Shown here piece after piece: positions 54,785-54,864 of a stretch of 64,000 nt of DNA; position 1 is the stretch's first letter, and each line of letters opens with the position of its first letter. The translations under genes and the position numbers were made by a program. A model generated the notes under the pieces. That model did no database searches, was not told the origin of the DNA, and saw only the letters and a list, made by a program, of their open reading frames with translations. This stretch comes from Escherichia phage HMD-P10. The stretch lies in sequence record PV469800.1, one strand, 5' to 3'.

Positions 54785-54864
54785 GTGGGACGATGTTAAG
54801 ACTCTAAGGCATGAGCAACGGCCTCCAAAACCGTTTCAAAGGGGTTCAACTCCTCCGTCCCATG
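54785..54864 (+). tRNA. atypical tRNA-like gene, possibly tRNA-Trp(CCA) with enlarged D region
   Basis: acceptor GTGGGAC/GTCCCAT, anticodon loop CTCCAAA, T-loop TTCAACT; 26 nt between acceptor and anticodon stem instead of about 19. Confidence 0.35.

Follow-up and report, generated by a model that had tools for sequence, protein, structure and literature searches.

The window analyzed here (the whole 64,000-nt stretch of Escherichia phage HMD-P10, sequence record PV469800.1) contains the tRNA cluster of a Felix O1-like myovirus (Felixounavirus, Ounavirinae), and raises the question of whether a phage equipped with tRNA genes for 19 amino acids also encodes the twentieth. ARAGORN called 26 tRNA genes between 52877 and 57900, all on the + strand, tryptophan alone being missing from the set, and no tRNA-Trp was found elsewhere in the window among these calls. 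An element of the cluster with a CCA anticodon, tRNA(CCA), had been noticed from the letters alone as an atypical tRNA-like gene and the only candidate for tRNA-Trp (hereafter, the original prediction), a statement that holds both for the window, as scanned with ARAGORN, and for the annotated relatives carrying the same form of the element. The evidence assembled below indicates that the element is probably a tRNA-Trp(CCA) gene, functional but of non-canonical structure, here called long-form tRNA-Trp, and that it most likely supplies the one tRNA lacking from an otherwise complete phage set. The 900 nt around it share 97-99% identity with phages pEP20, PK6, JH2 and many others (BLAST).

The gene is 83 nt long with its CCA included (54785-54867, +), as delimited from the sequence, the family model described below and covariation. 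The features attributed to it beforehand, namely acceptor strands GTGGGAC/GTCCCAT, a T arm and a loop CTCCAAA with CCA, were all read at 54785-54864, together with the 26 nt separating the acceptor stem from the anticodon stem as then drawn and the C-A mismatch closing the latter. The end placed at 54864 (80 nt) had to be moved by 3 nt, G54864 being the discriminator and CCA being encoded at 54865-54867. The 5' strand of the acceptor stem (GUGGGAC, 54785-54791), supported by sequence and covariation, pairs with GUCCCAU (54857-54863) in seven pairs, G1.U72 and six Watson-Crick, so that the 3' part of the gene (54857-54867) consists of this strand, the unpaired discriminator and the 3' CCA. Next to the acceptor strand, the homologue alignment places a connector, G-AUGUUAAG (54792-54800), of 9 nt instead of the 2 (U8, N9) found in canonical tRNAs. 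The D arm (54801-54816) is near-normal, with an A.C position (54801/54816) that was invariant (21/21 homologues), three pairs CUC/GAG (54802-54804 with 54813-54815) and an 8-nt loop, UAAGGCAU, including GG. In the anticodon arm (54817-54835), five Watson-Crick pairs (AACGG/CCGUU) are followed by the non-pair C54822.A54830 and the loop CUCCAAA, with CCA at 54825-54827; in standard numbering, 26-44 is a covarying Watson-Crick pair, then come 4 bp and the C.A at 31.39, U33 is present, and a free nucleotide 26 is absent. The remainder (54836-54856) comprises the variable region UCAA(A) and the T arm GGGG-UUCAACU-CCUC, enclosed between A54840 and C54856, with an A.C at 49.65 added to the stem GGGG/CCUC and a 7-nt loop.

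Counted from these pairs, the stacks would have canonical lengths, acceptor plus T comprising 12 layers and D plus anticodon 10. Because the helix stacks keep these layer counts, the surplus lies in the connector and not in the D loop; the proposal of a Trp tRNA with an expanded D region was thus right about extra nucleotides between acceptor and anticodon stems and wrong about the D loop as their place. The single large departure from a canonical tRNA is this sequence-invariant 9-nt connector between acceptor and D stems. Two other ways of folding the region were discarded. Another D stem, UGUU/AGCA around a loop of 16 nt, was not kept in the Moogle-type, Pectobacterium and L056 copies, CUC/GAG covarying instead, and a pseudoknot or extended stem AUG(9-11)/CAU(26-28) was contradicted by single changes left uncompensated (U10C in PC79-13 and C26A in L059).

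The comparison with relatives, which had been proposed as a check, revealed a conserved and covarying cloverleaf. About 235 phage records carried the long form (BLAST), from Felixounavirus, Mooglevirus, Suspvirus, Arno162-type Pectobacterium phages and one Yersinia phage. Between Felixounavirus and Pectobacterium phage Arno162 the element alone could be aligned (77% identity) and its flanks could not. More variants came from pattern scans of IMG/VR and metagenomes, including the distant L056, located in an unrelated tRNA cluster, and L076, from an Ounavirinae-like contig; across IMG/VR, metagenomes and 185,579 reference genomes, only Ounavirinae-type copies and these two were recovered, the remaining matches being ordinary tRNAs or chance. 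The one scan of the 185,579 reference genomes yielded no copy, and there was none in bacterial genomes. In all, 21 distinct homologues were compared, representing four or more Ounavirinae lineages and metagenomes.

In an ungapped set of 17 sequences laid on a hand-drawn cloverleaf, 99.1% of the stem cells paired and six pairs had changed on both sides. In the alignment of all 21 sequences, which was fitted to the family model, 98.7% of stem cells paired, with compensatory change in 12 of the 19 pairs and in each of the four stems. The covariation score was 0.428, compared with 0.144 in shuffles (reached by 0 of 500) and 0.017-0.060 in slid controls. A family covariance model, R1, built from the 17 ungapped sequences, scored members at 60-114 bits and ordinary tRNAs at 37 bits or less, and with it the window held exactly one family member, at 112.6 bits. 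Long-form tRNA(CCA) is therefore a conserved cloverleaf under selection for pairing. Since the ungapped alignment and an independent RNAalifold run gave the same structure as the model-guided alignment, chance, a pseudogene or a coding sequence are ruled out as its explanation.

Pair 1-72, G.U in the window, was A-U in 13 of the 21 versions and G-C in three; G-C was seen in the Pectobacterium and Yersinia phage copies, in which pair 2-71 had also switched; across the family, 2-71 went from U-A to C-G or G-C. All three D-stem pairs changed on both sides (CUC/GAG, CAC/GUG, ACA/UGU, CGU/ACG), and four of five anticodon-stem pairs covaried (AACGG/CCGUU, GUAAG/CUUAC, GUAGG/CCUAC, ACUUG/CAAGU). In the T stem, pair 50-64 was G-C in the window, U-A in Sf18 and Silverhawkium, and A-U in L056. 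The position closing the anticodon loop (31.39) was never a standard pair (C.A in 18, C.C in two, A.C in one), and conserved non-Watson-Crick closing positions occurred at 10.25 (A.C), 31.39 (C.A) and 49.65 (A.C). Family consensus loops were YUCCAAM for the anticodon and UUCRAHU for the T arm, with a variable loop of 4-5 nt, and the GCCA 3' end (G73 plus CCA) was invariant in all 21. RNAalifold proposed an additional pair 8:65 (G54792-C54856; G-C in 20 sequences, U.G in one), possibly an eighth acceptor pair, and preferred an 8/4 over a 7/5 acceptor/T arrangement, L056 being the sole informative sequence. Among the more divergent copies, those of Arno162 (L003 4006-4091) and Yersinia phage P778 (L019 408-493) showed a bulged U in the acceptor 3' strand, a D arm 2 nt longer and C.C at 31.39. 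The contig of L056 carried, besides, a second tRNA-like gene missed by ARAGORN (2602-2680, -), whose loop reads CUUCCAA (UCC, Gly) and whose D region is enlarged, the AUGUUAAG motif being absent.

The connector itself, GAUGUUAAG, exceeds the canonical 2 nt by 6-7 nt at the acceptor-D junction and begins with G, so that it departs from the usual U8-N9. It was identical in 19 of the 21 homologues; PC79-13 had a single U-to-C change, and L056, which shares little else with the family, had U for G at the first position and kept AUGUUAAG. When six connector nucleotides were deleted in silico, ARAGORN called a 77-nt tRNA-Trp(cca) in the window, in Shigella phage KPS64 and in L056. The connector is therefore what hides the gene, and the same result in three divergent members indicates that the rest of the molecule is an ordinary tRNA-Trp. 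A reading of the connector as a duplicated D-loop segment (TAAGAC..TAAGGC) was set aside as coincidence, the pattern being missing in L056. The fixation of sequence, besides length, favors a specific contact, and the connector would then be a looped-out motif specifically recognized by something: it could make a tertiary contact replacing U8-A14 and 9-23, bind a protein partner, or allow escape from a host tRNA-targeting nuclease.

With regard to amino acid identity, the long form was set against E. coli trpT tRNA-Trp. The two have in common the loop CUCCAAA, which is the anticodon loop of the E. coli molecule, as well as G73, A1-U72 (in most members), the G3-G5 pairs, a short variable loop, a UUCRA-type T loop, a D-loop GG and an encoded CCA. 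Unlike a canonical tRNA-Trp, the long form has a 9-nt instead of a 2-nt connector, G instead of U at position 8, a paired 26-44, and non-pairs at 10.25, 31.39 and 49.65. The anticodon CCA (54825-54827) and G73 (G54864), invariant in the 21 homologues, correspond to the major determinants of bacterial tRNA-Trp (G73 and C34C35A36), A1-U72 and G5-C68 being minor ones (PMC9976931). G3-C70, G4-C69 and G5-C68 were present in the family, the last in 21/21, while G2-C71, which together with G3-C70 and G4-C69 is a determinant in Bacillus subtilis (PMC9976931), was absent from it. The encoded CCA and A-rich trailer have the same format as those of the neighboring cluster tRNAs, CCA being encoded in 25 of the 26 called by ARAGORN.

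On these grounds long-form tRNA(CCA) most probably works like, and is, a tRNA-Trp, and we infer that it is expressed, charged and used in translation. It would be co-transcribed with the surrounding tRNA cluster, its 5' end would be matured by RNase P and its 3' end trimmed to the encoded CCA; host tryptophanyl-tRNA synthetase would recognize the CCA anticodon, G73 and the pairs of the acceptor stem and charge it, and with UGG decoded in this way no amino acid would be left without a phage tRNA. Felix O1-like phages (Felix O1, wV8, Bas63) serve as diagnostic, biocontrol and model phages, and the published inventories of most of them include no tRNA-Trp. Should the gene work, these phages have tRNAs for the full set of 20 amino acids, and there is a systematic gap in analyses of codon usage or tRNA complement based on ARAGORN or tRNAscan-SE. 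It is very unusual for a natural tRNA to tolerate, and to conserve, 6-7 extra nt at the 8-9 connector; such a molecule could reveal how far the tRNA core can be remodeled while remaining compatible with synthetase, EF-Tu and ribosome, and maybe offer a scaffold for engineering.

Several observations weigh against an assignment as functional tRNA-Trp. ARAGORN, one of the programs suggested for checking the gene, made no call at its position with default or -ps90 settings, the call appearing only after deletion of the six connector nucleotides. The best Rfam match there was tRNA-Sec at 23 bits, below its gathering score of 47 (E-value 0.46 over 6.5 kb, 0.013 over 181 nt), and in relatives annotated with tRNAscan-SE or ARAGORN the site was passed over, being left blank or overlaid by a 'hypothetical protein'. 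With G at position 8 and a 9-nt connector, the core contacts U8-A14 and 9-23 are lost, and correct folding into the L-shape is therefore putative. The window copy has G1.U72 rather than A1-U72, and U31-A39, a predicted Trp determinant (PMC9976931), is replaced by the conserved mismatch, C.A in the window. The metagenomic copy L076 (1339-1422) contained two acceptor-stem mismatches, maybe decay or an assembly error. Finally, the tRNA genes of Bas63 were reported to be mostly non-essential on laboratory strains (PMC11482910).

By two formal measures, then, the long form falls short of a tRNA, lacking a 2-nt connector with U8 and staying below the detector thresholds. RF00005, the general tRNA model (gathering score 29 bits), was not reached, the 23 bits of tRNA-Sec being the best Rfam tRNA-clan match, and the single-sequence fold was no better than shuffles (z = -1.3). 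Absence of a covariance-model hit had been named in advance as an outcome that would speak against the gene; for general tRNA models this is indeed what was found, yet it does not refute the gene, because the family-specific analysis shows strong structural selection. None of the approximately 235 records with the long form annotates it, the published Felix O1 tRNA table includes no tRNA-Trp (PMC3185647), and full-text literature searches returned no paper describing the long-form gene.

Further evidence came from the relatives in which the long form is replaced. In 23 records (wV8, O157 typing phages, VpaE1_ev78, BPS17L1, phiSUSP1, Sf19 and others) homology with the window ended at 54784 and resumed just past the CCA, the interval being occupied by a 71-nt tRNA-Trp(CCA) called by ARAGORN, followed by a 134-codon open reading frame (ORF) annotated as an HNH endonuclease, with weak Pfam HNH matches (cassette at 2647-3136 of L005, VpaE1_ev78, and at 2649-3138 of L004, BPS17L1). 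This short form has a reduced D arm (about 3 bp, 5-nt loop), a normal 31-39 pair, a CCA anticodon, G73, A1-U72 and an encoded CCA, and lies in the same slot as the long form, between tRNA-Arg(TCT) and tRNA-Ser(TGA). Its sequence is unrelated to that of the long form, is always linked to the HNH ORF, and in its tRNA part shows 78% identity to Vibrio jumbo phage sequences; it was labeled tRNA-Trp, tRNA-OTHER, tRNA-Pseudo or tRNA-Leu, depending on the record. Both alleles were found in three genera. Together, the approximately 235 long-form and 23 cassette records make 258, the number with the region (a sum of totals, not a record-by-record match), which suggests that each genome keeps one tRNA(CCA) in the slot, long and short forms being apparently mutually exclusive.

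The pattern may have arisen by an endonuclease driving the replacement of a functional gene, with the incoming cassette bringing its own substitute. Such 'intronless homing' is known for SegB in the tRNA gene region of phage T4, where, as here, a free-standing endonuclease gene in a phage tRNA cluster is associated with the swap of a neighboring tRNA allele; the enzyme here differs in being of HNH type, with weak Pfam matches, and homing is putative. As a natural case of allele replacement associated with an endonuclease, the swap of long and short tRNA-Trp in the tRNA cluster would be a clean one. Elsewhere in the VpaE1_ev78 cluster (L005 2060-2503), an 82-nt RNA labeled just 'tRNA' (CGGGGCGTATCTCAGCGG...CCTCGACCA), without an ARAGORN call and beside a putative endonuclease VII gene, sits where the window has tRNA-Arg(TCT), another endonuclease-linked swap.

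The element was also compared with other RNAs that resemble tRNAs. Its match to tRNA-Sec did not lead to assignment to that class, since RF01852 describes RNAs that have UCA as anticodon, helices of 8/5 and a long variable arm and that score at least 47 bits, whereas the element has CCA, a variable loop of 4-5 nt and 23 bits. The allo-tRNA-like RNAs with an extra loop at the acceptor-D junction (Mukai et al. 2017, as reviewed in PMC7609411) were the nearest, and sole, natural precedent found for surplus nucleotides at this place. The resemblance extends to a possible 8/4 acceptor/T arrangement, one of the two (8/4 or 9/3) that the 12-bp acceptor/T domain of allo-tRNAs takes and the one that RNAalifold proposed for the long form too. 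Otherwise these RNAs differ throughout, with long variable arms like those of tRNA-Sec/Ser, diverse non-cognate anticodons and a fifth stem-loop, and are described there as not charged by E. coli enzymes. The long-form surplus, in contrast to that extra loop, is a short single-stranded motif, and membership in the allo-tRNAs (long variable arm, Ser/Ala identity, unrelated anticodon) was rejected given the short variable loop and an anticodon and discriminator that agree on Trp. Phage tRNAs that replace nuclease-cleaved host tRNAs (T5 tRNA-Lys against PARIS, T5 tRNA-Tyr against retron Eco7, anticodon-loop variants of mycobacteriophages) would offer a functional parallel, in that a phage tRNA departs from the host isoacceptor where the structure is exposed; the long-form change, however, is in the core connector and not in the anticodon loop, and we know of no nuclease targeting tRNA-Trp in enterobacteria. 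E. coli has a single tRNA-Trp gene, and host tRNA-Trp would for this reason make an efficient defense target. We consider it improbable, though worth stating, that the AUGUUAAG insertion and the permanently unpaired 31.39 are an adaptation with its own function, be it concealment from a hypothetical host defense depleting tRNA-Trp, docking of a phage factor (e.g., the Ro60-like anti-defense protein) or a Hirsh-like loosened decoding. If this were true, the long form would found a new structural class of natural tRNA, in which a looped-out connector motif has a dedicated function.

The possibility of a regulatory tRNA mimic, also raised originally, found no specific support as such; in its broader version, the RNA would act outside translation as a decoy or ligand, for instance as a partner of a Ro60-like protein or as bait for a host tRNA-targeting nuclease, with the connector as binding site. 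A connector conserved in sequence while the stems drift fits a recognition motif, and just upstream of the cluster, on the same strand, lies a 471-codon gene (51296-52711, +) with Pfam domains DUF2828 and DUF7788, labeled 'RNA-binding protein' in records of relatives. The homologous protein of Bas63 has been described as Ro60-like and as countering the ppl defense, in a study whose authors proposed that Y RNAs may be among the 'tRNA' genes of the cluster (PMC11482910); Y RNAs with a tRNA-like form are known (PMC4201824). One of these, YrlA (RF02553), has a permuted (V)-T-AS-D order, a closed acceptor-like hairpin, a 5' GNCGAAN0-1G motif and no anticodon arm, and resembles the present case as a tRNA-like RNA near a Ro60-like gene on the same strand. 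As a YrlA, tRNA(CCA) was nonetheless rejected, with its colinear order and open G73-CCA end and with no match to RF02553 even at E-values up to 10. A complete G73-CCA end, a Trp anticodon loop and canonical helix lengths would all be needless for a Ro60 ligand, and relatives that retain the Ro60-like gene have exchanged the long form for a tRNA-Trp. Co-occurrence is not specific either, the Ro60-like protein being present in about 700 phage records, most of them without the long form, and a much better YrlA-like candidate with permuted T-AS-D order exists at 53719-53843. A role as mimic is thus rather unlikely.

Two further explanations were given still less weight. A tRNA-Trp with deliberately altered decoding would read UGA as Trp or promote frameshifting at specific phage sites. 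Hirsh-type suppressors of E. coli tRNA-Trp (G24A, A9C) relax codon recognition, and by analogy the position of the insertion next to 9 and 24, along with a conserved 31.39 non-pair that widens the anticodon loop, would point in this direction; but among the 24 longest open frames of the window four end in TGA, in-frame ORF pairs split by TGA were not clearly commoner than those split by TAA, no recoding site was found, and the short-form allele has a normal 31-39 pair and a reduced D region, all of which makes such recoding quite doubtful. As for a decaying pseudo-tRNA (an option of the original prediction), a chance cloverleaf or a piece of the 67-codon ORF at 54693-54896, the missing calls by ARAGORN and the Rfam tRNA model, the single-sequence fold not above shuffles and the hypothetical protein annotated across the site in some records are what these would account for. 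Conservation of the element across genera with diverged flanks and compensatory changes in all four stems contradict decay and chance, while the 2-nt and 1-nt indels of the Pectobacterium and Yersinia copies break a common frame, and the upstream part of the ORF is not conserved in L046 or L076; explanations of this kind are very improbable. A tRNA-Trp gene of unusual shape therefore remains the preferred interpretation of tRNA(CCA).

The YrlA-like module at 53719-53843 (+), about 1 kb downstream of the Ro60-like gene and on the same strand, is circularly permuted in the T-AS-D order of YrlA. Its parts are a closing helix of 7 bp (AGACCGU/ACGGUCU), a T arm at 53770-53786 (GAAGG-TTCGATT-CCTTC), an acceptor-like hairpin, likewise of 7 bp (ACTCGGC-AGAT-GTCGAGT), and a D arm (GTGT-AATGGTA-GCAC). 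Pairing of the hairpin was kept through three two-sided changes among 13 distinct relatives, and in Moogle-type copies its loop reads G-CCA-AACA. The Rfam YrlA model found no match at the module, which is likely an unrecognized Y RNA and is a better candidate than tRNA(CCA) for the Y RNA postulated by the Bas63 authors. Between it and tRNA-Lys, an element of about 145 nt (53847-53990, +) with a 22-bp terminal helix predicted by RNAfold (AATTATCTTTGTAGGTGAGCTA ... TAGCTTATCTACAAAGATAATT) may be a second Y-RNA-like or stable RNA. A direct repeat, CAGAAGACC(A/G)NNTACAGCAA, occurs at about 53628 and about 53714 (53628-53745, +), each copy opening a helix-closed module (AGACCAA...TTGGTCT and AGACCG...CGGTCT) whose 3' strand GGTCTGG loosely resembles the Ro-binding GGUCCGA motif.

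Other observations concern the remainder of the cluster. Directly 3' of tRNA(CCA), tRNA-Ser(TGA) (54881-54970, +) alone among the 26 called tRNAs has no encoded CCA, ending in ...CCGCC|TAATAA, and its best Rfam score was for tRNA-Sec (36.9 bits). Upstream, a near-consensus sigma-70 promoter (TTGACA-17-TATAGT, 54244-54272, +) follows tRNA-Ile immediately, and behind it a 290-nt non-coding stretch (54244-54565, +, promoter included) extends up to tRNA-Arg(TCT), its structure being strongly predicted and its tmRNA-type Rfam matches weak and below threshold. About 100 nt upstream of tRNA(CCA), a AAGGAGGTGGTCTGTATCTC motif, perfectly Shine-Dalgarno-like and not followed by any conserved ORF, precedes a hairpin CATGTT-TTCCAG-AACATG (54684-54722, +), and this motif was retained in divergent metagenomic relatives, including L046 and L076, despite differing surroundings. 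Two protein-coding genes of unassigned function, encoding a DUF7338 protein of 185 aa (55983-56540, +) and a DUF7217 protein of 265 aa (56929-57726, +), lie inside the tRNA cluster and are kept in relatives.

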